The notes below the pieces were generated by a model that made no database searches, had not been told where the DNA came from, and saw only the letters and a list, made by a program, of their open reading frames with translations. From NCBI GenBank assembly GCA_018814875.1, contig JAHIYH010000031.1:12739-76738 (forward strand): DNA of 64,000 nucleotides, read 5' to 3'. The stretch is from Patescibacteria group bacterium (GTDB lineage Bacteria; Patescibacteriota; Gracilibacteria; Peribacterales; Peribacteraceae). Position 1 is the stretch's first letter, and every line of letters begins with the position of its first letter. Shown here piece by piece: positions 8,320-64,000 of the stretch. Position numbers and translations under genes: made by a program.

Positions 8320-9761
8320 CCTTGATGCTGCTGCTGGATAATTTTCCCAATGTACTCTCCCATTTTCCATGCTCTTTCCTCTTTGGGGATCGGCTTACAT
8401 ACAGTAGATGTTCTAAAGAAGCTTTCCCCAGTTGTCTCCTCCATCGCCTTTAGAAAGATGCGCATATCACGCAGTGTGTGGCTTTCTTTGTCATGGAAGA
8501 TCTTCTGCACTGCGCGTTTACAGTCCTCCTCTGAGCGGATGCGATAAACACCTGGTGCATATTGAAAGTATTTATGTCCAAAAAGCATCGCAGGTTTCTG
8601 TTTAAATAACGCTTGGAAGCATGCGGTACCGGTGGCAGATGCCACTACTACTGATGCTTTGATTAATTCGAAGGAATCCATGTCTCTTGGCATTAGTGTT
8701 ACAGAAGGTATTGCATGAAGAGCATGATAGAACTCACAATCACGCATCATCTCTCCTTGGTTAGGATGCTCTTTAACATAAATCCTAACTCCATCAGGAA
8801 GGCACGCCGCGAGCAGCTGGACTATCAGTTCCTGATCCGTATACACGCCACCCATCGGGCAGGTAGTCGCTTCTGGCTGCATGTGAAGGGGAACGTATAC
8901 GAAAGGAACTTCTAGATCTGGCATTTCCACCAGTTTATCGTAGAGACTTCTCGTTATGTGGTGGTTCCACTTTCGCTTCCAGAAGTCGACTGAGATGACG
9001 GACTTTAAGAAGTAGAGAGGTTTGCGGAGAAGTATGGAAAATGCTATCTGGATCCATTTTGCGATGAAGCCACGGTGTGCTAAATGCGGGTGATTTTCTA
9101 TCATGTACCATGGCTTTATTTGGCCGTTTGTATAGATATCGAATGATTCTTCAAACACTGGCGAGAGAGGCACCTCCATTTCTAGATCTGCATATTCCTT
9201 CATGAGTTCCTCTGTTCGGTCACCGATTTCTTTCCCCGCCTCCTTCCAGTTTTCTTCCATACTGAACGAATCTGCCATGAAGTGCATGGCTAAATAGATC
9301 GTGCGGATACCCTTCAGCTTACATAAATCATAGATTACTAAATCGTAACACTGGTGTGGAATATTATGAGCTAGGTACAAGTCAATCTCCTTTTTATCGA
9401 GTACATGATTCCAATAACGTAGGTGCCGGTAGTACTGTCGTTTGCGCTCATCATATGACATGTCTTTGTAGAGTGCGTATCGACCAACCATTTTTAGAAA
9501 GACAGATTCGCAGTGTTGCATGGATTCAATAAGTTCTTCATCCAATGGTGGAATCTCTTGCCAGTTAACATTCGGATACCGTCCGGCACGCAGATCTACG
9601 GCAGACATTGATATGTATTCAACATCTTCTCCAAGATTTGGTATATAAGATGTATCATCACCAATTGCGATACATGTGTCGATTGTCATATCCTTCAGAG
9701 CACCTTCTATCATTGGATTTCCGAAACAATCTCGATTGAATCCCTTAATAATTACATTCAT
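8316..9761 (-). CDS. KpsS/Capsule_synth-like protein, paralog of the convergent neighbour
   Basis: YVPLHMQPE, YVKEHP, TGTACFQA, KPAMLFG; aligns by eye with 6862-8319. Confidence 0.65.
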   Translation of the reverse strand: MNVIIKGFNRDCFGNPMIEGALKDMTIDTCIAIGDDTSYIPNLGEDVEYISMSAVDLRAGRYPNVNWQEIPPLDEELIESMQHCESVFLKMVGRYALYKDMSYDERKRQYYRHLRYWNHVLDKKEIDLYLAHNIPHQCYDLVIYDLCKLKGIRTIYLAMHFMADSFSMEENWKEAGKEIGDRTEELMKEYADLEMEVPLSPVFEESFDIYTNGQIKPWYMIENHPHLAHRGFIAKWIQIAFSILLRKPLYFLKSVISVDFWKRKWNHHITRSLYDKLVEMPDLEVPFVYVPLHMQPEATTCPMGGVYTDQELIVQLLAACLPDGVRIYVKEHPNQGEMMRDCEFYHALHAIPSVTLMPRDMDSFELIKASVVVASATGTACFQALFKQKPAMLFGHKYFQYAPGVYRIRSEEDCKRAVQKIFHDKESHTLRDMRIFLKAMEETTGESFFRTSTVCKPIPKEERAWKMGEYIGKIIQQQHQG

Positions 9762-17293: not shown

Positions 17294-17352
17294 TCGTTAC
17301 TTCGTTATTTCGTTATTTCGAGACAACGAAGTAACGAGATAATGAAATAACG
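17294..17352. repeat. Inverted tandem array, 8-bp unit TTCGTTAT / ATAACGAA
   Basis: tcgttacttcgttatttcgttatttcg ... acaacgaagtaacgagataatgaaataacg. Confidence 0.9.
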
Positions 17353-31172: not shown

Positions 31173-31209
31173 TTGTTTTGTATGAATGTATTTGGTAGAT
31201 TCGCGTGCT

Positions 31210-31575
31210 ATGTCGGCTTTTAGATTCAAACAGTTCAAAGTTTATAAAGACGCGAAAGAATTTCGAAGGCAAGTTTCGCGTCTTGTAATCAAGCTAACGG
31301 ATAAGCGAGCGTATGATCTTTCCGCTCAAATAAGAAGAGCAAGTCTTTCGATTGTTCTCAATATTGCGGAAGGATCAGCAAAGAAATCAGATATTGATTT
31401 TGCGAGGTTTTTAGAAATATCATCAGGATCTGTTAATGAAGTTGTTGCAGGATTTGATGTTGCACACGACGAAAATCTGATTTCCAGTGAAGATTTAAAT
31501 CTAATTGAAGATAAAGCAAGAGAAATTATAAATCAATTAGGAGGCTTTATAAAAAGCTTAAGAGTTAAAAGTTGA
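31210..31575 (+). CDS. Four helix bundle protein (23S rRNA IVP / Avd-like family)
   Basis: FKQFKVYKDA, LSAQIRRASLSIVLNIAEGS, FARFLEISSGSVNEV, LGGFIKSL are family hallmarks. Confidence 0.9.
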   Translation: MSAFRFKQFKVYKDAKEFRRQVSRLVIKLTDKRAYDLSAQIRRASLSIVLNIAEGSAKKSDIDFARFLEISSGSVNEVVAGFDVAHDENLISSEDLNLIEDKAREIINQLGGFIKSLRVKS

Positions 31576-36650: not shown

Positions 36651-36724
36651 CCGTTATTTCGTTAATTCGTTATTTCGTTAACCCGTATGAGAAATTACGA
36701 AATAACTAAGTAACGAATTAACGT
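36651..36724. repeat. Inverted tandem array, 8-bp unit TTCGTTAT / ATAACGAA
   Basis: cgttatttcgttaattcgttatttcgtta ... ttacgaaataactaagtaacgaattaacg. Confidence 0.9.
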
Positions 36725-41611: not shown

Positions 41612-43498
<1,887 letters not shown>

Positions 43499-43510
<12 letters not shown>

Positions 43511-45187: not shown

Positions 45188-46279
45188 ATGATTTCTCTTA
45201 TATTACCAACGTACAACGAAGCAGAGAACATTCCTGAGCTTCTTCCTAAGATTGAGGAGATCTTATCGGGCATTCCGCACGAAATTATCATTGTGGATGA
45301 TGATTCTCCTGATAAAACGTGGCAGGTGGCGTTGGATCTTTCTCAGAATAAAGAAGATGTGCACGTTATTCGTAGAGTTGATAAACGAGGGCTTTCCTCT
45401 GCAGTCATTGATGGGTTCCTTGCAGCTAAGGGAGATGTATTTGCAGTAATGGATGCGGATGGGCAGCACGATATGGAATTACTTCCAAAGTTGTACGTAG
45501 CAGTTAAGGAAAACAATGGCCTCGCAATTGGATCAAGATATATTGAAGGCGGAAGCGTAGGCGGTTGGGATGAACGAAGACACTTTTTGAGCAAGATTGC
45601 GACAAAGATGGCATTGCATATTTGCAGTGTAAAAGTAAAAGATCCGATGAGTGGATTTTTTGCACTTGATCGCAAAGTATTTGAAGAAGTTTTACCAAGA
45701 TTAAATCCAAAGGGATTCAAAATCCTTCTCGACTTACTCGTGCATGTCCCCAAAGAAACCAAAGCTACGGAAACACCTTACACATTCGGTGTTCGTCAAT
45801 TAGGAAAGAGCAAACTCTCTTGGAAAGTGCAGATAGAATTTTTGGAATATCTTTACGATGTGACTGTAGGAAGATTCATTCCGCTGACATTCGTAAAGTT
45901 CTGCATTGTTGGAACATTTGGAGTTTTTGTTCACTTGATAGCGTACGGTGTTATCTCTCGTTCCATCATGGATGGGGATCCACTGACGATCGGAGGGTTC
46001 TCATTTGCAGTAATTGGAGCCACAGAAATTGCAATTATCTTCAATTATCTGCTGAATAACTCCTGGACATTTGCACATCAAAAGTTACGAGGAACATCAG
46101 CAATAGTTGGTTTCTTCAAATACAACGTTGCATGCTCGTTTGGGGCACTGGCAAATTGGGCGGTTAGTGCTTATCTCTTCTCGATTGGGTGGATTGATTT
46201 TCTGGCGGTCTTCACAGGAGCAATTGTTGGAGTTATGTGGAACTACACGATGAATAGGATGTTTACTTGGCGAAAGTAG
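45188..46279 (+). CDS. GT2 (Dol-P-Man synthase-like) fused to a C-terminal GtrA domain
   Basis: PTYNEAEN, VDDDSPDKT, MDADGQH, DPMSGFF; then KFCIVG...NYLLNNSWTF...WNY...FTW. Confidence 0.9.
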   Translation: MISLILPTYNEAENIPELLPKIEEILSGIPHEIIIVDDDSPDKTWQVALDLSQNKEDVHVIRRVDKRGLSSAVIDGFLAAKGDVFAVMDADGQHDMELLPKLYVAVKENNGLAIGSRYIEGGSVGGWDERRHFLSKIATKMALHICSVKVKDPMSGFFALDRKVFEEVLPRLNPKGFKILLDLLVHVPKETKATETPYTFGVRQLGKSKLSWKVQIEFLEYLYDVTVGRFIPLTFVKFCIVGTFGVFVHLIAYGVISRSIMDGDPLTIGGFSFAVIGATEIAIIFNYLLNNSWTFAHQKLRGTSAIVGFFKYNVACSFGALANWAVSAYLFSIGWIDFLAVFTGAIVGVMWNYTMNRMFTWRK

Positions 46280-46358
46280 TATTTCGTATTTCGTATCTCG
46301 TATTTCGTATCTAGCATGGCCTTTAGACCGAAATACTAAATACTAGATACTAAATACG
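46279..46358. repeat. Inverted tandem array, 7-bp GTATTTC / GAAATAC, between convergent genes
   Basis: gtatttcgtatttcgtatctcgtatttcgtatctag ... gaaatactaaatactagatactaaatacg; touches both stop codons. Confidence 0.93.
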
Positions 46359-47297
46359 ATAGTACTCGCGGTACCATTCCACAAACTTAGGCACTCCATC
46401 CTTAATTTGTGTCTTAGGTTCGTATCCAAGATCTCTCTTTGCCTTGGAGACATCCGCAAGACTTGCTCGCACATCTCCTTTCTGCATTGGCATAAAGTTC
46501 TTCTGAGCCTCTTTTCCACATGCTTCTTCGATTGTTGTGATGAAGTCCATGAGCTCTTCTTGTCTTCCAGAGCCTAAGTTGTATGCCTCCTCCTCAGCAT
46601 TGTTATCGATTGCTCCGATTGTGCCTGCAACAATATCTTCAACAAAAGTGAAGTCGCGTTGCATTTTTCCTTCGCCGAATACGTTAATGGGTTTGTCGTT
46701 CAGAATTGCATCTGTAAATAGGAAGAGTGCCATGTCTGGGCGCCCCCATGGTCCGTAAACCGTGAAGAATCGAAGTCCTGTAACAGGAATTCCATACAGG
46801 TGATGGTATGTATGGGCCATTAGTTCATTGTTTTTCTTGGTCATGCCGTAGAGTGCCAGCTGACTATCTGTTCGATCATCTTCGCTTGATGGTAGCTTCT
46901 TGTTATCACCATAAATAGAACTTGAAGAAGCGTAGATAAAACCGGGGATTTCTTGCATGCGTGCCTCATCTATCATCTCGAATGTTCCTTGGATATTATT
47001 CAGAATAAATTCATCTGGATGCTCAAACGAGTAGCGCACTCCGGCGAGTGCAGCTAAGTGGCACACACGATCTACTCCTTTCATAGCTCCACGTACTGTC
47101 TTGCGGTCTGTAATATCTCCACGTACGAGTGTGAATCCTTTTACTCCTTCCAACTGTTTGATTCTGTCCTCTTTAAGCTGAGGATCGTAGTAGGGATTGA
47201 AGTTATCTATTCCGATTACTTCATCACCACGTGCGAGTAGAACTTTCGCCGTATGGAAGCCAATGAACCCTGCCGCTCCTGTTAGTAGAATCTTCAT
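46350..47297 (-). CDS. UDP-glucuronate 4-epimerase-like NAD-dependent epimerase
   Basis: TGAAGFIG, HLAALAGVRYS, YGMTKK, LRFFTVYGPWGRPDMA. Confidence 0.92.
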   Translation of the reverse strand: MKILLTGAAGFIGFHTAKVLLARGDEVIGIDNFNPYYDPQLKEDRIKQLEGVKGFTLVRGDITDRKTVRGAMKGVDRVCHLAALAGVRYSFEHPDEFILNNIQGTFEMIDEARMQEIPGFIYASSSSIYGDNKKLPSSEDDRTDSQLALYGMTKKNNELMAHTYHHLYGIPVTGLRFFTVYGPWGRPDMALFLFTDAILNDKPINVFGEGKMQRDFTFVEDIVAGTIGAIDNNAEEEAYNLGSGRQEELMDFITTIEEACGKEAQKNFMPMQKGDVRASLADVSKAKRDLGYEPKTQIKDGVPKFVEWYREYYRI

Positions 47298-47390
47298 TAG
47301 TTTCTAGTTTATTAGTTTTTAGTTTTTAGTTACACCGTTTTTGCTCCTTTTTAGTAAACTAGGAACCAGAAACTAGCTAACCAGAAACTG
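47298..47390. repeat. Inverted tandem array, 7-bp TAGTTT(T/C) / AAACTAG
   Basis: tagtttctagtttattagtttttagtttttagtt ... aaactaggaaccagaaactagctaaccagaaactg; fills the intergenic gap. Confidence 0.85.
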
Positions 47391-53058: not shown

Positions 53059-54009
53059 ATGGAGAACAATAAAGCTATTGCAGGTCTACTCTGTCAAATC
53101 GCCGCCCTACTCCAAGAGCAGGAGGTGCCCTTTAAGCCTGCGGCATACAGGCGGGCTGCTCAGGTAATAGAAGAACTACCTCGAGATATTTCAACTTATG
53201 GAGATGAGAAGGAACTCAAGAAACTCTCAGGTATTGGTGATGCAATTGCACGTAAAATTATTGAGTACTTAGAAACAGGAAAAATAACTGCACTGGAAAA
53301 TTTACGCATCACTCAAGGTGGAATTCCCGCAGATCTTATGGACGTAGAAGGACTCGGGCCTAAGCGTGTACGTCAGATTCAAGCTGCATTTGGAGTGAAG
53401 ACTGTTGCAGATCTTATAAAAGCTGCAGAGGATGGGAAGCTGAGAACTCTCCCTCGTTTTTCTGAATTGATGGAGAAGAAAGTTTTGGAGAATGCGAAGC
53501 GGGTTAAGGAACGTACAAGGCGATTTCCGCGTGAGGAGGTTAAAGAAGATGTTATCAAGCTTCTGAAGAAGATTGAGGGCGTGGAAGGTGTTGATCAGTG
53601 CAGTGTTGCAGGTTCATATCGTCGCGAAAAAGAAACAGTTGGGGATATAGATATTCTCGTTGTAACTAAGTCACCAAAAGAAGTTTCCGATGCTATCGCT
53701 AGCTTATCTATAGTTCGTGATGTGGTGGCACATGGAGAGCGCAAACTTTCGTTTGATCTAAAGTCAGGATTACGCGTTGATGTTCGGTTTGTCAAAAAAG
53801 ATCAGTGGGGATCGGCACTCCTATATTTCACTGGATCAAAAGAGCACAATATTGCAATGCGTAGAGTAGCAATCAAGAACAGCTGGAAGCTTAATGAATA
53901 CGGACTTTTTGATGGAGATGCTTTGCTTGCGAGTAAGACCGAAGAGGAGATATATAAAAAGCTAAAACTGAGGTTTTTTGCTCCAAAAGAAAGGGGAGGA
54001 AGGTTATAA
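53059..54009 (+). CDS. polX: DNA polymerase X family, lacking the PHP domain
   Basis: AYRRAA, HhH GIG and GLGPK, GSYRR, GDIDIL, RVDVR, YFTGSKEHN, LNEYG. Confidence 0.92.
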   Translation: MENNKAIAGLLCQIAALLQEQEVPFKPAAYRRAAQVIEELPRDISTYGDEKELKKLSGIGDAIARKIIEYLETGKITALENLRITQGGIPADLMDVEGLGPKRVRQIQAAFGVKTVADLIKAAEDGKLRTLPRFSELMEKKVLENAKRVKERTRRFPREEVKEDVIKLLKKIEGVEGVDQCSVAGSYRREKETVGDIDILVVTKSPKEVSDAIASLSIVRDVVAHGERKLSFDLKSGLRVDVRFVKKDQWGSALLYFTGSKEHNIAMRRVAIKNSWKLNEYGLFDGDALLASKTEEEIYKKLKLRFFAPKERGGRL

Positions 54010-54083: not shown

Positions 54084-55037
54084 ATGCTCACTCAACTCGC
54101 TGATTTTCTAACGTTCACAATACTTAAGATTGAGCCAGAAACGACTCAGGCTGCGGTGGTGCATTTCTTTTTGTATGACTCCATCAAGATTCTTCTTCTG
54201 TTGATAGTCATCACGCATTTTATGAGTTTGCTGCGGTACTACTTGCCCATAGAAAAGATGCGGGCATTCCTAACTTCGCATAAGTTCTATGGAGCGGATT
54301 ATTTTCTGGCAACGATATTTGGGGCTGTTACTCCTTTCTGTTCTTGTTCATCTATTCCACTTTTTATTGGCTTTGTAGAGGCGGGGATTCCGCTTGGAGT
54401 CACATTGTCTTTCCTTATCACTTCTCCATTGATCAACGAAGTGGCTGTTGCTCTATTTATAAGCATGTTTGGATGGAAAGTCACACTTCTTTACGTTGGT
54501 GCGGGGATTGCTGTAGGAATGATTGGCGGAATGATATTGAGTAGAATGCGATTGGAACAATATATAGAAGAGTTTGTGCAAAAGTCTCCTTGTAAGTGCA
54601 AACAAAAATCAGAAAAGTCTTCGGTAGTAAGTATTTGTTTGATGCTATCTAAAGATGCAATGGGGATTGTTAAACAGGTGGCTCCGTTTGTTCTTATAGG
54701 CGTAATGGTTGGAGCTCTTATTCACGGATACGTTCCGGAAGGATTCTTTGAGCAATATATTCAAAAAGATAATCTATTTGCAGTTCCTGCAGCTGTTATT
54801 TTGGCTGTACCACTTTATGCCAATGCGAGTGGTGTGATTCCTATTATCGAATCTCTTGTAGATAAGGGGATTCCACTGGGAACTGCGCTAGCTTTTATGA
54901 TGGCAGTTGTTGGTCTTTCGCTCCCGGAAGCATTGATCTTAAAGAAAGTGATGAAGCTAAAACTGCTCCTAGCATTCTTTGGAGTAGTGACTTTGGGGAT
55001 TATGCTGATTGGGTATGGCTTCAACATAATGCTTTAA
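54084..55037 (+). CDS. Permease, ArsP/DUF318 family
   Basis: TPFCSCSSIP, FLITSP, GIPLGTALAFM, LSLPE. Confidence 0.88.
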   Translation: MLTQLADFLTFTILKIEPETTQAAVVHFFLYDSIKILLLLIVITHFMSLLRYYLPIEKMRAFLTSHKFYGADYFLATIFGAVTPFCSCSSIPLFIGFVEAGIPLGVTLSFLITSPLINEVAVALFISMFGWKVTLLYVGAGIAVGMIGGMILSRMRLEQYIEEFVQKSPCKCKQKSEKSSVVSICLMLSKDAMGIVKQVAPFVLIGVMVGALIHGYVPEGFFEQYIQKDNLFAVPAAVILAVPLYANASGVIPIIESLVDKGIPLGTALAFMMAVVGLSLPEALILKKVMKLKLLLAFFGVVTLGIMLIGYGFNIML

Positions 55038-55062
55038 ACTGGTTTGCCATGAGCGAGTCGGA

Positions 55063-55152
55063 TGGCGGAGAGAGGGGGATTCGAACCCCCGAGACCCTTT
55101 CAGGTCTACTCGCTTTCCAAGCGAGCGCACTAGGCCACTATGCGATCCCTCC
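55063..55152 (-). tRNA. tRNA-Ser (GGA)
   Basis: GGAGGGA acceptor stem, anticodon arm CTCGC-TTGGAAA-GCGAG, long variable arm, GGTTCGAATCC, encoded CCA. Confidence 0.97.
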
Positions 55153-55326
55153 ACAGACAAATGTACAAGGCAGATCACTTTTCAGCAAAGAGGATTGTCG
55201 ATGATTTTTCGAAGAAGCAGTGCGGCGTCCGTCTCGGCGCGGCCGAGCCGCGACGGAAATCGGGATCGCCATCTCAGTGTGTTGATCTGCATCAATAAGG
55301 CTTGTACCATCTTTCCGCGAAGCCGT

Positions 55327-55557
55327 CTACTTCTGACACACCCCCAAGCAGCACGCCAACGACCTGATCCACAAGTGCGCGGTTATTGCGAAAGCGAGAA
55401 TCGATAGAGAAGCTCCGGTTGTTCCAAAAGTGGCACCAGCACCGATGAAGTGCGTTTCGTAAATGCCTGCGACAGCTGCGAGCATCGCAAGAAACATAAG
55501 AACAGAGACAACCCACTGTAGGGCTTGGAGCATTCCTGTGTTGCTAGATTTGGCCAT
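55327..55557 (-). CDS. Small membrane protein (2 TM)
   Basis: MAKSSNTGMLQALQWVVSVLMFL...; hydrophobic, fills the gap between the tRNA and pheT. Confidence 0.6.
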   Translation of the reverse strand: MAKSSNTGMLQALQWVVSVLMFLAMLAAVAGIYETHFIGAGATFGTTGASLSILAFAITAHLWIRSLACCLGVCQK

Positions 55558-55628
55558 AATAGAGAAGGGGAAAGGCATAGGTTGTCTTAAAGCGTACTCG
55601 TTCCTTTATATTTGCACAATATGCCATA

Positions 55629-55712
55629 AAATGAATAGTGAATAATGAAAAATGGAAAATTAAAGGGTGATTCTGTGATTATTCTTCATTATTCATTTTT
55701 CATTCTTCATTT
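55629..55712. repeat. Inverted tandem array, 7-bp AATGAA(T/A) / (A/T)TTCATT
   Basis: aaatgaatagtgaataatgaaaaatggaaaatt ... attcttcattattcatttttcattcttcattt. Confidence 0.9.
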
Positions 55713-55735
55713 CTCTTCGTGTATGCTTATCCCAT

Positions 55736-58138
55736 ATGAAAATATCTCTAGATTGGCTCAGCGATTTTCTTGAATGGGAAGAGCCCTTCGGCTCTGCTCA
55801 GGGCAGGTATAATCCTGCGAAGATTGCAGAGCGCATAACGTCTTGCACGGCAGAAGTGGAAGGAATGAGTTCTAAGGGCACGCAGTTGGATGGGTGTTGT
55901 GTGGGGAAAATTATCAAAGTCGAGAAACATCCAAATGCTGACAAGCTCAGCTTGTGTGGTGTGGAGACAGATCAGGGGAAGAAGCAGGTGGTATGTGGAG
56001 GTACTAATCTGCGAAAGGGGATGAAAATCGTTTTTGCACATGTAGGCACAACAGTGAAATCTTCTGATGGAGGAATGCTTAAATTGAATAAAATAAAGAT
56101 TCGCGGAGAAGAAAGCGAAGGGATGATCTGCGCGGCCGAAGAGCTTGAGCTTGAAGCACACTATCCTCCTCTGCCTGAGAATGGTGATCGTCCAGTCATG
56201 GATCTTGGAGATGGCGATGAGCATGTTGGGCTATCATTGAGTGAGTATTTAGGAAGTGGCGGAACAGTCTTGGATATTGATAATCATGCGATCACGCACC
56301 GCGCGGACCTCTTTTCGCATATCGGCTTTGCTCGTGAATGTATAGCAATGGGGTTGGCTAAATGGCGCAAAGATCGGCCAATGTTTGCTGATCAATCGTT
56401 CCCCAAAGATCCGCTTCCATTCGAAAACATAGTTGATTGCAAGAATGAGATTCCACGATACTGTTCGTGTCTACTCTCTATTGATTCTGTCGGCGAGACA
56501 CCAGATTGGATGAAGAAGCGCTTGGAATCAGTCGGACTTCGTTCGCTAAATCTTCCCATAGATATAACAAACTATGTGATGCTGGAAGTTGGGATGCCAT
56601 TGCACAGCTTTGATGCGGATGATCTAAAGGGTGATATACATATGCGACTTTCTAAAAAAGGAGAAAAGATTGTGACGTTGGATAAAGTTGAACGAAAATT
56701 ACCAGAAGGCGCAATTGTATTGAGTGACGACGAAGGCATTTTCGATTTGCTTGGTGTGATGGGAGGGCTGCGCAGTTCTACAAAGGAAGGAACAAAGCGA
56801 ATCTATTTGCATAGTGCAGGAGTAGATCCGGTTTCTATTCGTAAGACGATTATTGCCACAGGTCATAGAACAGATGCTGCAACAATTTACGAGAAGGGAG
56901 TTCCAAATATAATTGTACAAATGGGATTCAATCGTGCATTGGAGTTCTTCTTGGAACTTGTTCCCGGTGCAAAGATTATTTCTAGGATGGACAGTTGGGG
57001 AGATAACGGATCACCAAAGCCGATTGATCTTCCGTTTGAAAAGGTAACGCAGATGTTGGGAGTAGAAATCCCTACGCAAACTGTAGAAAAGATTCTCAGC
57101 GATCTTGAGTTTGATGTGAAGAAAAAAGGAAAAATCTTCAAAGTTACTCCGCCTCTATTCCGTTTAGGGGATATATCGGGTCCGCATGATTTGATTGAAG
57201 AGATCGGACGAATTTATGGATATGATGCAATCGATTCAGTGCTTCCTGTATCTCAAGTTGATCCTCCTGAGCGAGATCAAAGAATTCACATACTTCGTGA
57301 TGCACTCAAAGAAGAAGGATTCATGGAAATTCTCCCACTCTCTCTTGTTGGTCCTTCCCTCCTTCAAAAATGCAATATTGATACAGATACTGCTGCCGTT
57401 ATCGAAAATCCACTTGGAGAGGAGCTATCCATTATGCAACCAAGTACGTTGCCGGGACTTCTGGACCATGCTCAACAGAATATTCTTAATGTAGATAAGA
57501 CACTCGCAACATTCCAGTGGGGACAAGTATTTGCAAAAAGAGAAGATGATGAGTTGGAGATGGGATTACTCCTTAGTAGTTGGATAGAAACAGGATTGAA
57601 TGATGATCCATTTCTTGTTCTTAAATCAAAACTTGTAAGGGCTTTGAAGCAAGTGGGATATGAATCATCAATCGAGCCAATGAAGAATGCACCTCCATAC
57701 GCTCATCCGGGAAGAGTAGCCGCTCTTGTTGTAGATAAAGATCCTGTTGGGATTATTTTCGAAGTACATCCGGGAGTACGTGAACAGTTCGGCCTACCAA
57801 ATCGTGCAGCTGCCGTACGTATTTCTCTTACTAGACTTCTTGCGCTAGAACCTAAAACAACAGTTGCTATGTCGGTTTCACAATTTCCATCGATTACATA
57901 TGATGTGACACTACCATTTGATCAGAGCAAGAGTGCGGGAGAGTTTGTAGATAAGGTGAAGAAGACGTCTGATCTTCTAGAAAGCGTGGAGGTCGCCAAT
58001 CTTTACGCCGAGTCGGGCCAAGTATATAAGTACAATCTGACCATTCGTTGTGTTTATCGCGCGAAGAATAGGACGCTCACAGAAGAGGAGGCTAAAGATG
58101 CCCACAAAGCGGTGATTGCATTAACATCTGGCAACTGA
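55736..58138 (+). CDS. pheT: Phenylalanine-tRNA ligase beta subunit
   Basis: MKISLDWL, HPNADKL, VVCGG.N, IRGEESEGMIC, HRADL, DLIEEIGRIYGYD, YRAKNRTLT. Confidence 0.96.
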   Translation: MKISLDWLSDFLEWEEPFGSAQGRYNPAKIAERITSCTAEVEGMSSKGTQLDGCCVGKIIKVEKHPNADKLSLCGVETDQGKKQVVCGGTNLRKGMKIVFAHVGTTVKSSDGGMLKLNKIKIRGEESEGMICAAEELELEAHYPPLPENGDRPVMDLGDGDEHVGLSLSEYLGSGGTVLDIDNHAITHRADLFSHIGFARECIAMGLAKWRKDRPMFADQSFPKDPLPFENIVDCKNEIPRYCSCLLSIDSVGETPDWMKKRLESVGLRSLNLPIDITNYVMLEVGMPLHSFDADDLKGDIHMRLSKKGEKIVTLDKVERKLPEGAIVLSDDEGIFDLLGVMGGLRSSTKEGTKRIYLHSAGVDPVSIRKTIIATGHRTDAATIYEKGVPNIIVQMGFNRALEFFLELVPGAKIISRMDSWGDNGSPKPIDLPFEKVTQMLGVEIPTQTVEKILSDLEFDVKKKGKIFKVTPPLFRLGDISGPHDLIEEIGRIYGYDAIDSVLPVSQVDPPERDQRIHILRDALKEEGFMEILPLSLVGPSLLQKCNIDTDTAAVIENPLGEELSIMQPSTLPGLLDHAQQNILNVDKTLATFQWGQVFAKREDDELEMGLLLSSWIETGLNDDPFLVLKSKLVRALKQVGYESSIEPMKNAPPYAHPGRVAALVVDKDPVGIIFEVHPGVREQFGLPNRAAAVRISLTRLLALEPKTTVAMSVSQFPSITYDVTLPFDQSKSAGEFVDKVKKTSDLLESVEVANLYAESGQVYKYNLTIRCVYRAKNRTLTEEEAKDAHKAVIALTSGN

Positions 58139-58250
58139 TGACACGTTCGCCTACGGCGAACTTTCAACACGCTTCGCTTTCAACAATCAACTTCAAAGTT
58201 GATGGTTGAAAGCGACCCCACTTTACCGGGGAGCGTGTTGATTGTTATCA
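58136..58250. repeat. Gene-less copy of the four-helix-bundle cassette arms
   Basis: tcaacacgc-ttc-gctttcaacaatcaac ... gttgatggttgaaagcg...agcgtgttgattgttat; the 17-mer 58232-58248 is identical to 31603-31619. Confidence 0.88.
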
Positions 58251-58276
58251 CGTTCATGATAAAATACAAAATCTTC

Positions 58277-58813
58277 ATGTCTATAACTACCAAGATTGGC
58301 GATGGTGGTAAATCAGGGCTCCTAAGTGGGGAGCGTGTTTCTAAGGGTTCTCTTCGCTTGGAAGCATTTGGGACTGTGGATGAACTTAATGCAGTTTTGG
58401 GAGTTGTTCTTGTCGAGGAAGAGATTCCCGTAGAAGTCAAAGAGTACTTAGTGCAAGTGCAGAAGCTTCTTTTTAGAGTTGGGACGGATTTGGCGACTCC
58501 ATTAAAAGGGACAAGTGGAATCGTCAGAATTTCTCAGGAAGATATCTATCAAATTGAAAAGTGGATTGATGAACTTGAGCAGACGCTTCCTGTTCTCAAA
58601 CACTTCATTCTTCCAAGTGGATCGCGACTGAGTTCGTTGATACATCAGGCTCGCACAGTATGTCGTCGTGCGGAGCGATGCACTGTTCGATTATCTGAAA
58701 AAGAAAAGATAAATGATCACGTTCAAATTTATCTGAATCGTTTAAGCGACTACCTCTTTCTAGCCGCACGAGAGGCAAATCTTGGAGAGGGAGTTGATGA
58801 GTCGGAGGTGTGA
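58277..58813 (+). CDS. Cob(I)alamin adenosyltransferase, PduO type
   Basis: TTKIGDGG.S, GTVDELNA, FILP, RTVCRRAER, YLNRLSDYLF. Confidence 0.93.
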   Translation: MSITTKIGDGGKSGLLSGERVSKGSLRLEAFGTVDELNAVLGVVLVEEEIPVEVKEYLVQVQKLLFRVGTDLATPLKGTSGIVRISQEDIYQIEKWIDELEQTLPVLKHFILPSGSRLSSLIHQARTVCRRAERCTVRLSEKEKINDHVQIYLNRLSDYLFLAAREANLGEGVDESEV

Positions 58814-58850
58814 CGTTATTTCGTTATTTCGTTAATTCGTTTATTTGTTA
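58813..58850. repeat. Tandem array, 8-bp TTCGTTAT, starting at the TGA stop
   Basis: acgttatttcgttatttcgttaattcgtttatttgtt. Confidence 0.88.
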
Positions 58851-58989
58851 AATAAATGGCCAATAACTAGGGTAAAAGGCCATTGCTCAATTAACAATAT
58901 TCAGTATTGTTAGTACGTTCCTGCAAAGGATAAAAAGAGTAGGAACAGGTCCTGCTCATTCACAATTCTCAATGATGGGAGAGTAGATC

Positions 58990-59616
58990 ATGTTCAAGGC
59001 ATTGAAAAATTTCTGGACACCGGTAGGCAATTTTTTTGTTTGGGGGTTGGAGATACATCGAAGAAGGACTGCGAAAATTTTCCTCAAGAGGTACAAGCCG
59101 ATGTATTATAAGGATCTGCACGCACCTTATTTGCAATTTTATGAATTTCCGCCACGAGTGCAAAAGCTGATTCTCAGATACCTTTATTGTTTCATTGGCA
59201 GTGAGCGTAAGGATAGATACAACTACTGCTGGTGTAGTATGATTAAAATCGTGGAAACAGACGAGCGCCTGAAGCGAAAATGGTGCACTTTTAACGGAGG
59301 TGTCGAAGAATTGAGGAGAGAAGGTTACAGTGTCCACGCAGATATACTTGATCCTCTTGTGCAAAAAGCTGCTGCGAACGGGAGGCTTGAACATCTCAGT
59401 CTCCTGTACGGTCCCAAGCTTTCGCATCATCTTCTGCGCACATGCATGGAAGCAGCACGTACGAAACGAGACATGGAAGTAGCACTCGAATGTGCACAGA
59501 TGCTCAGAGATTATCAAGTGATTGCGGAAATACTTTCAATTTCGGGTACACCGCATCAGATGATCACGGCGCAGCTCTTCTTGGAAGGACGAGTATCGGA
59601 GGAAGAACTTCTGTGA
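58990..59616 (+). CDS. Orphan hypothetical protein (208 aa)
   Basis: Purine-rich SD-like GGGAGAG upstream and two hairpins downstream; no family recognised. Confidence 0.6.
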   Translation: MFKALKNFWTPVGNFFVWGLEIHRRRTAKIFLKRYKPMYYKDLHAPYLQFYEFPPRVQKLILRYLYCFIGSERKDRYNYCWCSMIKIVETDERLKRKWCTFNGGVEELRREGYSVHADILDPLVQKAAANGRLEHLSLLYGPKLSHHLLRTCMEAARTKRDMEVALECAQMLRDYQVIAEILSISGTPHQMITAQLFLEGRVSEEELL

Positions 59617-59623
59617 TTCTCTC

Positions 59624-59671
59624 AAGGGTAGGACCACCCTTAAAGCCCTGTACCATTGTATGGGGCTTTAA
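59624..59671 (+). terminator. Two adjacent hairpins after the orphan gene
   Basis: aagggt-aggacc-accctt and taaagccc...gggcttta. Confidence 0.55.
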
Positions 59672-59720
59672 ACTGCATAAGAAATGAATCGAAAAGAGGG
59701 GGCAAAGGAGTCGGAGATAT

Positions 59721-59838
59721 GACGTTATCTCATTATTTCGTTAATTCGTTAATTCGTTTATTTGTTGAACTGAGCTGCGGTTGTGATTCGTTAATTCGTT
59801 AAACTGAGATTCGAAATAACAAAATAACGAAGTAGCAA
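59721..59838. repeat. Inverted tandem array, 8-bp TTCGTTA(T/A) / ATAACGAA
   Basis: gacgttatctcattatttcgttaattcgttaattcgtt ... cgaaataacaaaataacgaagtagc. Confidence 0.88.
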
Positions 59839-59839
59839 A

Positions 59840-60166
59840 TCATAGAGCCAACAACATCTCTCCCTGTGGTAATCCCAGCGCTTCCCAGAAATTCAAAACA
59901 AAGAGGAATATGAAAAATGCAGCAAGAGGAATACCGATTCCCAGTGCAAGAGCGCGCGAAGGTGTATCTTTTGGATGAACACTTAAATAAAGTCCGGTTC
60001 CTCCATATAGAATTGTTGTGAGTGCGAAAGAGAGATCAGCACGCTGTATCCACCAAGCGGATCCAGCAGCATAGATTCCATTATGCATTAATAGGTATGC
60101 CATAAAGAGGCTTATACCAAGGAGGAAGAATAGGAAGCCTGTGAGGCGGTGTAGATAGGATGTCAC
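59840..60166 (-). CDS. Hypothetical membrane protein (3 TM)
   Basis: 108 aa, three hydrophobic segments, GTG start. Confidence 0.65.
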   Translation of the reverse strand: MTSYLHRLTGFLFFLLGISLFMAYLLMHNGIYAAGSAWWIQRADLSFALTTILYGGTGLYLSVHPKDTPSRALALGIGIPLAAFFIFLFVLNFWEALGLPQGEMLLAL

Positions 60167-60172
60167 GTCAAA

Positions 60173-60203
60173 TAGCTTATAGCTTTTAGCTTCTAGCTTC
60201 TAG
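60173..60203. repeat. Single-arm tandem array, 7-bp TAGCTTN
   Basis: tagcttatagcttttagcttctagcttctag. Confidence 0.85.
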
Positions 60204-60227
60204 GGATATTAGTCTTGTATCTCTGAT

Positions 60228-60368
60228 TCATTTCTTCTTCTGCACAGTAAGCCTCTTCCTGCCTTTTCTCCTGCGGCGACTCAGCAGAGCCTTTCCATCC
60301 TTGGATGAGCTACGCTGTAAGAAACCGTGCTTACGGAGACGCCGACGCCATTTCAATTTACCTAACAT
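60228..60368 (-). CDS. rpmH: 50S ribosomal protein L34
   Basis: Manual translation MLGKLKWRRRLRKHGFLQRSSSKDGKALLSRRRRKGRKRLTVQKKK; HGF..R and G..LL.RRR.KGR..L motifs; below the ORF-track cutoff. Confidence 0.92.
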   Translation of the reverse strand: MLGKLKWRRRLRKHGFLQRSSSKDGKALLSRRRRKGRKRLTVQKKK

Positions 60369-60408
60369 TGCTGGTGGACGTTATCTATAAGTTTATGTCT
60401 GGTCAACA

Positions 60409-60479
60409 AGTTAGTTAGTTTTTTAGTTTCTGGTTTTTAGTTATCTAGCAACTATGAACTAAAAAACCAGTTAACTAAT
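60409..60479. repeat. Degenerate inverted array, TAGTTTT / AAAACTA type
   Basis: agttagttagttttttagtttctggtttttagtt ... aactatgaactaaaaaaccagttaactaa. Confidence 0.75.
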
Positions 60480-60506
60480 CGATGATCCTGCCCTACACTC
60501 TTTCTA

Positions 60507-61769
60507 ATGCACTCAGTCAATAAGCTCAAATCTGGCCTCCGTGTCCTAACTGCCCCTTGTGATGGGACAGCCTCTATCACGGTTTTAGTATTTGCAGGTG
60601 CAGGATCTCGTTATGAGGAGGAAAAGGAGCGTGGTATCAGCCATTTTCTGGAGCATATGTTCTTTAAAGGCGGGAATAGGTACAAGAATACAAAAGAAGT
60701 CAGTGTGGCGATCGATGGAGTGGGTGGAGACTTTAATGCATTCACAGGAAAGGAATATGCAGGTTACTACGTTAAAGTTGCTGCCGAACATATTGATCTG
60801 GGATGCGATGTTCTAAGTGATATGCTTTTGAATGCTAGCTTTCCTCAGGATGATATTGAGCGCGAGCGAGGTGTGATTATGGAAGAAGAGCGCATGTATC
60901 AAGACACACCGATGTATCGTGCAGGATGGGACTTTGAGGAACTTCTCTTCGGCGATAATCCGTTGGGATGGGATACGATTGGAAAAGAAAAGGTAATCAT
61001 GTCTGTGCAGCAGGCGGATTTTCAATCGCACAAAGATTCACTCTACACACCAGATAATCTGGTTGTAGCTTTTGCCGGGAAGATTTCTGAAGATGGAGCT
61101 ATGGATCTTTCCGAGAAATATTTCTCTGGCATTAATGGTTCCAAAAATCGTGAATACAAACCATTTGAATCTTATGGGCCCGAGCGCGTGTTCCTTAGAA
61201 CAAAGAAAACTGAACAAGCGCATTTAGTTCTTGGAGTTCCTGGCATCAGCTCTCTTGAAGATGATTACTTTGCACAAAAACTTCTCGCAATTATCTTGGG
61301 TGGCAATATGAGTTCTAGGATGTTCCTAAATATCCGCGAAGCTAAGGGTTTGTGCTATTACATTTCTACTGAAGATGACAGTTATATGGATGCTGGTTCA
61401 CTTTCCACTCGCGCAGGAGTGGATCAGTCTCGCTTGCATGATGCGATCAAACTTATCAAGCATGAATATATGGAATGTGTGGATAAAGGAATTACTGATG
61501 AGGAGCTCAAACGTTCTAAGGACTTCCTTAAGGGTAAAATTACATTGAGTTTAGAAGACTCCGAAGAGCAGGCACATTTCTATGGCAAACAAGAGCTGAT
61601 GTATCCCAAGGTTCGAACAGTAGATGATTACTTTGCAGAGTTAGATAAAGTTAGCAAAGAACAGGTAAATACTTTGGCTACACGGTTGCTCACTCCGGAA
61701 GAGATGCGATTGGTGGTGATTGGGAAAGAGGAGAATAAGGGAGGGCTTGAGGATATGGTGAGCTCGTAA
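60507..61769 (+). CDS. M16 family (pitrilysin-like) zinc peptidase
   Basis: GSRYE, inverted zinc motif HFLEH, FNAFTGKE, SRMF..IRE..GLCY. Confidence 0.93.
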   Translation: MHSVNKLKSGLRVLTAPCDGTASITVLVFAGAGSRYEEEKERGISHFLEHMFFKGGNRYKNTKEVSVAIDGVGGDFNAFTGKEYAGYYVKVAAEHIDLGCDVLSDMLLNASFPQDDIERERGVIMEEERMYQDTPMYRAGWDFEELLFGDNPLGWDTIGKEKVIMSVQQADFQSHKDSLYTPDNLVVAFAGKISEDGAMDLSEKYFSGINGSKNREYKPFESYGPERVFLRTKKTEQAHLVLGVPGISSLEDDYFAQKLLAIILGGNMSSRMFLNIREAKGLCYYISTEDDSYMDAGSLSTRAGVDQSRLHDAIKLIKHEYMECVDKGITDEELKRSKDFLKGKITLSLEDSEEQAHFYGKQELMYPKVRTVDDYFAELDKVSKEQVNTLATRLLTPEEMRLVVIGKEENKGGLEDMVSS

Positions 61770-61780
61770 TATATAGAACA

Positions 61781-61864
61781 ATTGTTCCATTGCTTCATTG
61801 TCTCATTGTTAAAAGTTGGATACTTGCTTGCGAACAATGGAACAATGGAACAATATAGCAATGT
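61781..61864. repeat. Inverted tandem array, 8-bp CATTGTTC / GAACAATG
   Basis: attgttccattgcttcattgtctcattgtt ... gaacaatggaacaatggaacaatatagcaatg. Confidence 0.92.
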
Positions 61865-61882
61865 ATTAATTTTCCCTTACTT

Positions 61883-62317
61883 ATGCAAAGAACTCTGATT
61901 CTACTCAAGCCCGACTGCATGCAGAAAAAGATCTGTGGCAAGGTTCTCGCGCGATTCGAAGACGCCGGATTCAAGATTATCGGATGCAAAATGATCAAGT
62001 TAGATCTTGATACATTGCGTGAACACTATGCTCACATTGCAGAGTTTCCGTTTTATCCAGATGTAGAAAAGTTCATGAGTTCTACACCAGTAATTGGAAT
62101 GGTTTTGGAAGGCGATGGGATTATCGAAAAGATGCGTGAGAATTTGGGAGTAACAGATTGTTTAGAAGCAGCTTCTGGAACAATTCGTGCTGAGTTTGGA
62201 AGCAAAGAAGAAGGGGATAGCAAAATGCGCAATGTAGTCCATGCTTCGGATAGCGAAGAGGCTGCCGCGAATGAGATTGCAAGGTTCTTTAAAAAAGACG
62301 AACTTTTTGAGTATTAA
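61883..62317 (+). CDS. ndk: Nucleoside diphosphate kinase
   Basis: RTLILLKPD, HYAH...PFY, GTIR, NVVHASDS. Confidence 0.95.
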   Translation: MQRTLILLKPDCMQKKICGKVLARFEDAGFKIIGCKMIKLDLDTLREHYAHIAEFPFYPDVEKFMSSTPVIGMVLEGDGIIEKMRENLGVTDCLEAASGTIRAEFGSKEEGDSKMRNVVHASDSEEAAANEIARFFKKDELFEY

Positions 62318-62337
62318 TAATTTTTCCCCATTTATGT

Positions 62338-62559
62338 ATGCAAAATCTATTAACTAAAAAACTAGATGTAATGAATGGTTTAGGAATACAGGCAAGCAAT
62401 AGAAGAGTTCTTGTTGCCGAGGCAGAGCTTTTAGTTAAGGAGCTTAGAAAATGTGGGAAACATGAATTGGCTGACAAATTAGAAGCATCTGCAAGAGAAG
62501 TGCAAAGCACACAGGAGGCTGCTCGCAAAAGTACAGTAGAGTGTCTTCAGTCGCTATAA
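62338..62559 (+). CDS. Small hypothetical helical protein (73 aa)
   Basis: Fills the gap between ndk and the protease; stop abuts the convergent gene. Confidence 0.45.
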   Translation: MQNLLTKKLDVMNGLGIQASNRRVLVAEAELLVKELRKCGKHELADKLEASAREVQSTQEAARKSTVECLQSL

Positions 62560-63819
62560 CTATAATTGCGTTGGCTCCTCTCCATCCAAAAGTAACTCCA
62601 GTGCCGCATCCAGCTGCGGATCTTTCTCATCTATAATATCCTCACGTGTGCGTTCAACTTCGATATCAGGATGCACTCCATCCTTGCCCAAATCTCTTCC
62701 TGAAGGCGTTAGCCACCTTGCAACCGTGATACGGACTGATGCATTACCTGGGAGGTCAAAGACCTCCTGAACGGTTCCCTTCCCAAAGCTCTTCTTACCA
62801 ATGATTGTTGCGCGTCCAGCATCTTGCAAGGCGCCTGCCAAAATTTCTGATGCGCTTGCGGAACCTTCATTGATCAAAACAACAAGTGGGATATCCGGAT
62901 CAGATGGTCGACCGGAAACATAGTGGTTTGATGGTTCCCCATTTCTACGTTCAACAGTTACTACCTTTCCTTCTTTTAAGAACATAGATGCCATATCAAC
63001 AGCGCCTTCCAGATATCCACCACCATTAAAGCGCACATCCATAATGAGGCCTTGTAGATCTTCATCGCGCATGTCTTTGAGTGCGCTCTTCACTTCTTTC
63101 ACGCTGTCTTCTCCAAATTGATTGAGTTGAATGTATCCGATGGAACCCGTTGCAGTTTCTTTAACTTCATATTCAACACTCGGAATGGTGATACTTGCAC
63201 GTGTGATGGTGATGTCTAGGAGATCGGATTCTTCTTCGCGTTTAATGCTCAGAGTCACTTTAGACCCCTTTTCTCCTCGGATTCTCTGTACAACTTGGTG
63301 AAGTGTTTCCCCTGTGATATCGACATCATCTACTTTTAGGACAATATCTTCTGGTTCCAGCCCTGCTTTGGAGGCAGGAGATCCTTTAAGAGGAGCGACC
63401 ACAACCACCATTCCATCACGCATTGTGAGTTCTGCGCCAATACCTTCCATCTTTCCTTGTAGTGATTGTGTGAATTGGGCGTTCTCCGTTGGAGTCATAA
63501 AGGTGGTGTATGGATCACCAATGGCACGTACCAATCCACCTACTGCACCGTAAACCATTTCGGGGGGATTAAGTTGATCTTCAATAATGTAATGCTTGAG
63601 GAGCAACCTCCATACGCCCCAAAGAAGTGAAAGATCCACTTCCTGTTCTGGATTACCCAACAGAGTTCCACTTGCAGTTTTGCCTGTATACAGAAGCTCC
63701 AATTGCTGCGAAAGCTCAACCAGATTTTTTTGTTCGTAGCGTGCACCGATCTGCCACCCCAAAAACAAAGTAATGAGTGGTAGGATCAGGAGAGTGCTTG
63801 TTCTGAGGAGCTTTGGCAT
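62560..63819 (-). CDS. S41 family carboxyl-terminal processing protease (PDZ)
   Basis: N-terminal TM, DPYT, GIG PDZ, DVRFNGGG, SASASEI, SFGKGTVQ. Confidence 0.95.
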   Translation of the reverse strand: MPKLLRTSTLLILPLITLFLGWQIGARYEQKNLVELSQQLELLYTGKTASGTLLGNPEQEVDLSLLWGVWRLLLKHYIIEDQLNPPEMVYGAVGGLVRAIGDPYTTFMTPTENAQFTQSLQGKMEGIGAELTMRDGMVVVVAPLKGSPASKAGLEPEDIVLKVDDVDITGETLHQVVQRIRGEKGSKVTLSIKREEESDLLDITITRASITIPSVEYEVKETATGSIGYIQLNQFGEDSVKEVKSALKDMRDEDLQGLIMDVRFNGGGYLEGAVDMASMFLKEGKVVTVERRNGEPSNHYVSGRPSDPDIPLVVLINEGSASASEILAGALQDAGRATIIGKKSFGKGTVQEVFDLPGNASVRITVARWLTPSGRDLGKDGVHPDIEVERTREDIIDEKDPQLDAALELLLDGEEPTQL

Positions 63820-63865
63820 ACCCGACGAGTATAGCGGATCTTTATTGTGTTGTTCTAATTTGAAT

Positions 63866-63938
63866 GGGAAATAAGGGAAATAGAAGAAATAAAGGATCGT
63901 CTATTTCTTTTATTGCCCTTATTTCTTTTATTTCTCCC
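63866..63938. repeat. Inverted tandem array, 9-bp GGAAATAAG / CTTATTTCT
   Basis: gggaaataagggaaatagaagaaataaagg ... ctatttcttttattgcccttatttcttttatttctccc. Confidence 0.88.
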
Positions 63939-64000
63939 TCTGGAGGATGTTTCATCAGTGCCATGGTATGATAAAGTCATGGTGAAATTGCCTGCTTCCA

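Follow-up and report, generated by a model that had tools for sequence, protein, structure and literature searches.

A duplicated gene tail flanks a single-gene unit

Within a 64,000-nt stretch of DNA from a Patescibacteria group bacterium (hereafter the window; G000:C23:12739-76738, on the 175-kb contig C23 of a 1.42-Mb genome, G000, that comprises 70 contigs and is 98.8% complete), we analysed a single gene, orf208, that stands between two copies of the 3′ end of a cob(I)alamin adenosyltransferase gene. The gene order at the locus is pheT, adenosyltransferase, orf208, a convergent gene of 108 amino acids (aa) and an M16 peptidase gene. The PduO-type adenosyltransferase gene (58277..58813, + strand, 178 aa; present in 115 of 121 family genomes) is live, and its PF01923 domain is complete (residues 3-166 of 178, E 1.1e-55), so that the target gene is kept intact by the tail lying upstream of orf208. 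The downstream neighbour (59840..60166, − strand) is a 108-aa open reading frame (ORF) without a Pfam family, which we call a membrane protein gene from a reading of its hydrophobic sequence.

Copy A of the duplicated tail (58762..58849, + strand) consists of the last ~16 codons and the stop of the live gene plus the left arm of an array of the octamer TTCGTTAT, with a well-supported core at 58786-58849; copy B (59671..59766, + strand) is a displaced, dead tail with in-frame stops (relic stop at 59720-59722) and the octamer array with one extra unit. A repeat search paired 58786-58849 with 59695-59758 (64 nt, 83% identity), and MAFFT agreed; a second pairing, with 59703-59766 at 73%, runs one octamer out of register because copy B has that extra octamer. 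In translation copy A ends in AAREANLGEGVDESEV and copy B in EMNRKEGAKESEI, each followed by a stop, and when the coding tails were anchored at the stop codon 25 of 39 nt agreed between them. A score of at least 25/39 was reached at 4 of 2,842,490 genome positions (both strands), the query itself and copy B among the 4, and when the unit was compared with the genome by BLAST, copy B alone extended upstream of the stop, the other hits being array only. The likeness of 58762-58785 to 59671-59694 is weak (~13/25 by eye); copy B retains an NRKEG motif that is present in two related genomes, G003 and G004.

The initial annotation had claimed that the end of the adenosyltransferase gene recurs downstream, array included. 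The tail duplication is confirmed, with a similarity upstream of the array that lies beyond chance; the array, in contrast, belongs to a dispersed repeat family and is therefore no evidence of duplication by itself (allowing 2 mismatches, the window has 17 occurrences of TTCGTTAATTCGTT vs. 0.75 expected, a count reached by 0 of 100 shuffles; allowing 1, the genome has 33, spread over 10 contigs). The inverted arm of the array, seen as inverted-repeat pairs, was found where the annotation had placed it, downstream of copy B only (59787..59835, + strand), and forms a palindrome with the copy B array between the convergent genes; the predicted fold of 59719-59842 is not significant (z −0.6). Between copy A and the unit lies a junction spacer (58850..58903, + strand) with a GGCC hairpin at 58856-58883, to which we assign no origin and which is absent from the locus of the orf208 homolog in the related genome G001.

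Units of 7-8 nt, repeated in short tandem arrays that in many cases form palindromes with a following reverse complement of themselves, occupy most intergenic regions of the window (for example 17294-17352, 36652-36723, 43378-43510, 46279-46357, 47297-47389, 55628-55711, 60172-60203 and 60409-60476), and Tandem Repeats Finder returned 66 rows in the 64 kb. The array unit varies by locus except for a few dispersed families such as TTCGTTAT, and tandem arrays are often included in duplicated targets.

A gene 3′ end followed by a small ORF and, a few hundred nt downstream, by a diverged copy of that end is also the layout of a diversity-generating retroelement (DGR) with its variable region and template repeat, and the dispersed octamer array could in principle produce a chance likeness. 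A true DGR does exist elsewhere in the genome (L083, G000:C29:67300-70900; RVT_1 E 7e-18, a bAvd-like four-helix protein E 5e-11, and a 104-nt repeat pair, 83% identical, at the 3′ end of a 367-aa gene). The adenosyltransferase locus is unlike a DGR in that no reverse transcriptase (RVT family) was found in the window and the repeat includes the stop codon, the array and non-coding DNA; moreover, the 64-nt pair has 11 mismatches, with an A at only 6 of them in copy B and at 1 in copy A, so that they are not adenine-specific. As for chance, the coding-tail match lies far beyond it, and the dead tails at the same site in G001 and in a metagenome contig, L078 (both described below), lack the TTCGTTAT array. 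Both readings are effectively refuted on these grounds, and we leave them next to no probability.

The unit contains one maintained gene with its own signals

The unit opens with a leader (58904..58965, + strand) that is 54/62 nt (87%) identical to G001 L010:1056-1117 and whose BLAST boundary against G001 begins at 58904; a Shine-Dalgarno-like GGGAGAG and an ATG at 58990 follow. The cargo, orf208 (58990..59616, + strand), is an ORF of 208 aa whose predicted structure is that of an all-alpha helical-repeat protein, with no function assigned, and the unit closes with a terminator-like hairpin that has a 13-bp stem and no long T run (59641..59670, + strand; −23.6 kcal/mol, z −3.2). This hairpin is conserved in G001 and in L078 (135-165); the predicted fold of the leader is not significant (z −1.8). 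Among 200 family genomes, the leader and hairpin motifs occur in one copy each and in G000 and G001 only, which argues that they are gene-specific signals and not the ends of a multicopy element. The initial annotation had described the sequence between the two copies as a unit with its own leader, 208-aa ORF and hairpin, and that description stands, with leader and hairpin both shared with G001. A promoter and terminator consensus scan gave no more sites than in shuffles and none before orf208; Rfam had nothing above the gathering score in window positions 55000-64000 except one tRNA, and no credible RNA family in the loci L010, L017 and L018.

The only genomic homolog of orf208 is in G001, on a different contig from the G001 adenosyltransferase gene; the C-terminal ~117 codons of the two are ~67% identical in DNA and 57% in protein, and no alignment is obtained over the N-terminal ~90 codons. 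When 1.84 billion representative proteins were searched with a profile, there were 8 hits at E≤0.001, from which a 125-aa product of the window itself and one spurious repeat protein have to be subtracted, leaving six credible relatives, and a word-indexed search returned the 125-aa self match only. When further members of the family were sought in their genomic context, the genome collection gave only G001 and the metagenome collection only L078. The gene had been called an orphan, which is right insofar as it has no Pfam, PADLOC or PHROGs match, but a tiny family with six credible relatives does exist. The AlphaFold2 model (pLDDT 79.9) consists of helices throughout, and Foldseek found nothing in the PDB at E≤0.001, the best match being PPR-like (E 0.15).

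Against the L078 fragment, the ratio of nonsynonymous to synonymous divergence (dN/dS) of orf208 is 0.087 over 37 codons, which indicates a maintained gene under purifying selection. Taken together with the G001 homolog, which lies elsewhere with the same leader and hairpin, this dN/dS tells us that orf208 is a real, travelling gene. The synonymous divergence (dS) between the G000 and L078 cassettes is 1.48 over 37 codons and that of the membrane gene is non-computable, values too noisy for horizontal transfer to be inferred from them.

In G001 the homolog (contig C29, L010) lies between long inverted repeats (773-939 and 1951-2114; 104 nt at 88% plus 23 nt at 100%). The repeat is a dispersed one that is also found in G000, at C23:96888-97025 and C29:4174-4358.

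Relatives carry the site empty, occupied or with different cargo

We compared 35 loci around the adenosyltransferase gene (all 8 genus genomes and the 27 next-best family matches, of 115 matching genomes), each seen over ±1.5 kb. By tblastn the order pheT, adenosyltransferase, membrane gene, M16 peptidase is widespread among them, and the 108-aa membrane gene has matches in 28 of the 35. The site is empty in G003, where the adenosyltransferase stop stands ~8 nt from the end of the membrane gene. When each genome's own 3′ tail was compared with its downstream DNA (34 loci, L023 having no downstream DNA), a significant coding-tail duplicate was present in two loci only, those of G000 (z 26) and G001 (z 18); L020, L025, L043 and L045 had duplicates of post-stop arrays only, and L035 had a borderline tail duplicate (z 4.0, 20 nt). 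The annotation's reading of an insertion is thus borne out by G003 and most of the 34 loci, in which the site is empty, as well as by the different cargo found there in G001.

That cargo is an 81-aa ORF without a family, followed by a hairpin and by a dead adenosyltransferase tail of which 67/89 nt are identical to the live tail; a dead membrane-gene tail comes next. At ~2511-2625 of this locus (L018) the dead copy of the membrane gene 3′ end is followed by a hairpin and then by the live end, and a 14-mer just beyond the membrane gene, GCTGCGGTTGTGAT, is common to window positions 59773-59786. A third occupied site is that of L078, a 1,008-nt metagenome contig that carries the end of an orf208 homolog (78% aa identity over 36 residues), then the same hairpin, a dead tail ending in KIYLSDFLFLAVREANQVMDVEDIEV and a stop, a palindromic array built of another unit, and finally the membrane gene; its membrane protein is nearest to that of G073, a genome from another genus, in which the site is empty (70.8%, as against 63% to G000). 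In G001 and L078, whose cargo is different, the dead tail sets in at about one and the same codon ([VI]YLN, ~−87), and in G000 at ~−50; the duplicated segment runs from ~−50 to +36 in G000 and from −84 to 0 in G001. These comparisons show an insertion into the 3′ end of the adenosyltransferase gene, with the live tail upstream and the dead tail downstream.

G000, G001 and G003 form a well-supported clade whose inner branching is unresolved, and the synonymous divergence among them is either dS ~2 or not computable. In G000 the two copies of the tail are separated by a Jukes-Cantor distance of 0.20 when all 64 nt are taken and of 0.49 for the 39-nt coding tail; the G001 copies are at 0.30. The duplications look younger than the species, unless gene conversion keeps the copies alike, and because the copies differ far less than the species do, the events in G000 and G001 look independent.

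A single ancient vertical insertion, followed by precise losses in most lineages, a cargo swap in G001 and gene conversion of the tails, would account for a cassette that G000 and L078 have in common at one site, for the like start of the G001 and L078 dead tails, and for a cassette dS between G000 and L078 that is already 1.48 over 37 codons; direct repeats, furthermore, favour precise loss. However, it would need many such losses to have occurred independently (in G003, G004-G007, G073 and other loci without a coding-tail duplicate), the non-coding relics should be unrecognisable at the dS of ~2 or more seen within the G000/G001/G003 clade, and the duplicated segment differs between G000 and G001. 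We regard such a history as very improbable.

The same footprint recurs at unrelated targets in one genome

To find out how far the pattern extends we scanned the last 90 nt of 1,224 long ORFs of G000 for recurrences within 3 kb downstream (score of at least 38) and found 21, vs. 6 in a reverse-complement control. A self-BLAST of the genome gave 164 direct vs. 30 inverted repeat pairs in 65 clusters (40-350 nt long, 150-5000 nt apart), many of which are internal repeats or paralogs and one of which is the true DGR. The footprint was present at seven checked loci other than the adenosyltransferase gene, and those at which only the live gene tail and/or the palindrome flanks one ORF on both sides include dnaN (−33 to +60 duplicated, with a 229-aa ORF as cargo), an HD-domain hydrolase gene (130 nt, 171-aa ORF), a convergent M23 peptidase/PAS pair (~220 nt, 270-aa Big_5 protein), C7:8001-10614 (43/44 nt, 274-aa ORF), an Orn/Arg decarboxylase gene (58 nt, SET-domain gene) and tRNA-Ile (64/64 nt, GIY-YIG ORF). 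ORF maps added six loci with 3′-tail-type pairs and one with a 5′-type pair, and by our own classification of the self-BLAST clusters there are ~4 cases at 5′ ends vs. ~12-14 at 3′ ends. The first cargo gene is co-directional with the live gene in 8 of 8 closely examined loci, and is not so in 3 of the 7 loci seen as ORF maps.

Relatives confirm insertion at two of the examined footprint loci. The dnaN site is empty in G003 and holds a different cargo of 3.5 kb in G001, with an IS200-like Y1 transposase at its start and a dead dnaN tail, identical to the live one at 42/45 nt, at its end, and the HD site is empty in G001, G003 and G004. In the G001 dnaN locus (L064, G001:C29:27600-34300) the Y1 transposase (PF01797, E 2.4e-40) is followed by two ORFs without a family (365 and 496 aa) and then by the dead tail. 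At the tRNA locus (L084, G000:C20:2600-3400) the order is tRNA-Ile(gat), an 87-aa GIY-YIG ORF (E 3e-15) and a second, 64/64 copy of the tRNA 3′ part, and ARAGORN called only the first copy as a tRNA.

Such recurrence is what one would expect if the target were duplicated de novo, with DNA of any origin being taken in where a break has left long staggered ends, or through template switching in repair: the event would be centred on the palindrome of a gene end or terminator, fill-in would duplicate 40-230 nt, neither homology nor a recombinase would be needed, and each event would be independent. The excess of direct over inverted repeat pairs and of downstream over control recurrences fits this account, as do targets that differ at every locus and usually include a local palindromic array, young pairs that are near-identical (64/64 for tRNA-Ile, 43/44 for C7, 42/45 for G001 dnaN), and boundaries that vary between species at one site (−33 vs. 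−44 at dnaN, ~−50 vs. ~−87 at the adenosyltransferase gene). The window also holds, at 53059-54006, a gene for a family-X (Pol beta-like) DNA polymerase with thumb, palm and HhH domains, which may bear on gap filling if the duplications arise de novo. Yet the account leaves unexplained why the same cassette family lies at the same site in two non-sister lineages and why two dead tails with different cargo begin at the same codon, and we know of no bacterial enzyme system that makes staggered insertions of 40-230 nt. On balance we hold it to be a serious but rather unlikely explanation.

No recombinase was found with the element

The initial annotation had noted that no integrase lies nearby, and wider searches agreed with it. 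Of the 62 window ORFs 60 were scanned (the remaining two being short forms already covered), and none of them matched a recombinase or transposase family; in 12 relatives whose locus has wide gaps or a different synteny, the 20 scanned ORFs that follow the adenosyltransferase gene include no recombinase. PF00589 has no match on contig C23 and four in the genome, one of them a contig-end fragment, and the genome has two weak Y1 transposase-like matches. As orf208 is the only gene in the unit, no integrase is encoded within the element. Hallmarks of transposons and insertion sequences were likewise missing: no transposase is found in the window, leader and hairpin are single copy, and the duplication measures 64-96 nt.

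One of the four PF00589 matches, a tyrosine recombinase gene (E 4.8e-50, 7850-8326), stands between 63-nt direct repeats that are 78% identical (G000:C29:7429-8950), and may represent a minimal, integrase-only element.

We also considered a decayed element akin to a cis-mobilizable element (CIME), in which an integrase once inserted a larger island at an attachment (att) site in the 3′ end, deletions left one cargo gene, and mobility would now depend on a related integrase in trans or on tandem accretion. The attL/attR-like layout at a conserved 3′ end is in line with this, and so are the left boundary shared by G001 and L078 (~−87) despite different cargo, the presence of four PF00589 matches elsewhere in G000, one of them between direct repeats, and, so far as the part of the source consulted goes, the description of CIMEs with att sites and without recombination genes in gene 3′ ends (PMC7563491). 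Against it, no integrase was found at the site in the 35 loci (within ±1.5 kb) or in the 20 scanned ORFs of 12 relatives, and none on the 175-kb contig by PF00589; no related integrative and conjugative element (ICE) or integrative and mobilizable element (IME) was found at the same att site in those ORFs and loci; the copies have diverged over their whole length with no identical core; and a footprint at seven or more unrelated targets in one 1.4-Mb genome is too much for a few integrases. The annotation had seen an attL/attR-like scar; site-specific recombination is not supported, and the same footprint at many unrelated targets in a genome with only four PF00589 matches argues for a general mechanism rather than for one att site. 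We consider a decayed CIME-like element improbable.

A crossover between gene tails is the favoured mechanism

The mechanism that we favour, at somewhat less than an even chance, is a crossover of the chromosomal gene tail with a homologous tail on incoming, probably circular DNA, with possible loop-out and re-entry. A single-gene cassette (leader, orf208 and hairpin; ~58904-59670) would enter the last ~50-90 nt of the adenosyltransferase gene, and the crossover would put the gene tail and the left half of the palindrome on both sides of it. The upstream tail would then complete the live gene, and the downstream tail would be the displaced one, decaying and attached to the rest of the palindrome and the membrane gene. 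Integration would be of the Campbell type, like that of the element e14 in the E. coli gene icd but lacking a recombinase in cis, and would be carried out by host homologous recombination or by a recombinase acting in trans; phage 21 uses the same icd-type integration as e14. The flanking repeats could loop the cassette out again with one tail attached, which would make it a mobile unit tied to its site and would lead to the same cassette family, and other cargo, being found there in different lineages. What favours the crossover is precisely that lineages which are not sisters have one cassette family at one and the same site, and that the dead tails share their start despite different cargo.

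Several points weigh against a crossover. The foreign copy was not told apart from the resident one: ungapped identity matrices over 39, 60 and 87 nt were uninformative, and copy B has an identity of 0.64 to copy A and to G003 alike, so that of the earlier claim of an integration that replaced the C-terminus the insertion stands and the incoming C-terminus lacks support. No adenosyltransferase-like segment was found after the hairpin of the G001:C29 cassette (114 to 467 of 500 shuffles scored as well), and repeats of 33-90 nt at 70-85% identity are poor RecA substrates. Gene conversion between the copies would undermine the argument from age, and the sequencing-run data that we examined for excised circles and empty-site molecules were assembled contigs (Logan, four runs), in which no joint was reported. 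The footprints elsewhere, finally, differ in their target from locus to locus and often contain only a local palindrome, and the youngest repeat pairs are 93-100% identical; for these features de novo duplication is the simpler explanation.

Crossover and de novo duplication are not exclusive, as a cassette that arose de novo could go on to spread by way of its repeats. A broader proposal, which we put forward tentatively, is that single genes are gained in this lineage by a general route that needs no integrase and has gene tails and terminator palindromes as its landing sites, in which each event duplicates 40-230 nt of target, both genes keep a terminator, and the cassette can loop out and re-enter the same site in relatives by homologous recombination after DNA uptake. 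A sub-variant in which the leader-to-hairpin units are reverse-transcribed mRNA copies inserted by target-primed synthesis has, in our estimate, a very small chance of being right.

Assembly and surroundings of the locus

Contigs of two runs (~10.7 kb each) span 57800-60700 in one piece and with no differences; they do not amount to independent support for the assembly, since this DNA may itself have come from those runs. Groundwater metagenome and biofilm metagenome are the labels of the runs in which the stretch occurs.

Upstream of the adenosyltransferase gene lies pheT (55736..58138, + strand), an ORF named phenylalanyl-tRNA synthetase beta chain-like from a reading of its translation and supported by tblastn synteny in the compared loci, and beyond the membrane gene lies the ORF of the M16 peptidase (60507-61769, + strand). 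Between the membrane and M16 genes, 60228-60368 is non-coding and partly conserved in L078 (74.5% over 51 nt); it reads as a spurious basic minus-strand ORF in both the window and L078 and has no Rfam family. Three quarters of the window (1-48700) are taken up by a large biosynthesis cluster of the polysaccharide or nonulosonic-acid type, with three NeuB genes, cytidylyltransferases, DegT aminotransferases and many epimerases and glycosyltransferases, and a 23S_rRNA_IVP four-helix gene stands at 31186-31572.

Significance and comparison with known systems

Gene gain in the ultra-small, recombinase-poor genomes of the candidate phyla radiation (CPR)/Patescibacteria is poorly described, and the adenosyltransferase locus offers a clean, datable example of it in three states (empty, occupied and with alternative cargo). 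It further opens the way to a class of single genes, found genome-wide between long target duplications, and its main value may lie there, as an entry point to recurrent, apparently recombinase-independent single-gene gain in a CPR lineage. If the repeats do serve for excision and re-entry, the locus would exemplify a minimal cassette system needing only host recombination and DNA uptake, one that would also mark safe-harbour sites at conserved gene ends; if the duplications instead arise de novo, they would point to an undescribed repair or insertion pathway with very long target duplications in the lineage. Natural competence has been shown for Saccharibacteria, according to the portion of PMC10187176 that was consulted. 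A term search of the available text of a survey of horizontal transfer in 125 Patescibacteria genomes gave no 'direct repeat', 'integrase' or 'insertion' (PMC12455944), and neither that text nor a limited literature search yielded a description of recurrent integrase-free gene gain.

An integrase-less insertion in a gene 3′ end resembles known layouts, and may be regarded as a variation on those of e14/icd and of CIMEs. The e14 element is flanked by icd and by icdC, a C-terminal pseudogene, and its excision, which is SOS-induced and site-specific and uses the element's own recombination functions, recombines the two and so removes the element, as described in the consulted part of PMC13626634. 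As far as that account reaches, our locus is alike in having an element in the 3′ end of a housekeeping gene, a live gene that runs into the element-side tail, and a displaced C-terminal fragment at the far border; direct repeats of the target 3′ end, an intact target with a pseudo-tail, and an unoccupied site in relatives were all observed here, and an integrase was not. It differs in that e14 (~15 kb) has its own recombination functions, whereas the unit here is a single 208-aa gene in ~0.8 kb, with no recombinase found on the contig, and in that the same footprint occurs at many unrelated targets of one small genome.

The CIMEs of streptococci, in the section of the source that we used, have att-type direct repeats and no recombination or transfer genes, and sit in the 3′ ends of rpmG, rpsI, fda and rplL (PMC7563491). 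With these the unit would share its flanking repeats, its place in the 3′ end of a conserved gene, the few cargo genes and the lack of any recombination or transfer gene found. Classical CIMEs measure 1.2-13 kb, derive from ICEs or IMEs and are recognised beside elements with the same att site, whereas no ICE, IME or integrase was found here in the genomes examined. The footprint is also like that of genomic islets at tRNA 3′ halves, in which the 3′ part of the target is duplicated around the cargo, as it is over 64/64 nt in the tRNA-Ile case of G000; unlike integrase islets, however, the tRNA-Ile case has no integrase, and a single 87-aa ORF is its cargo.

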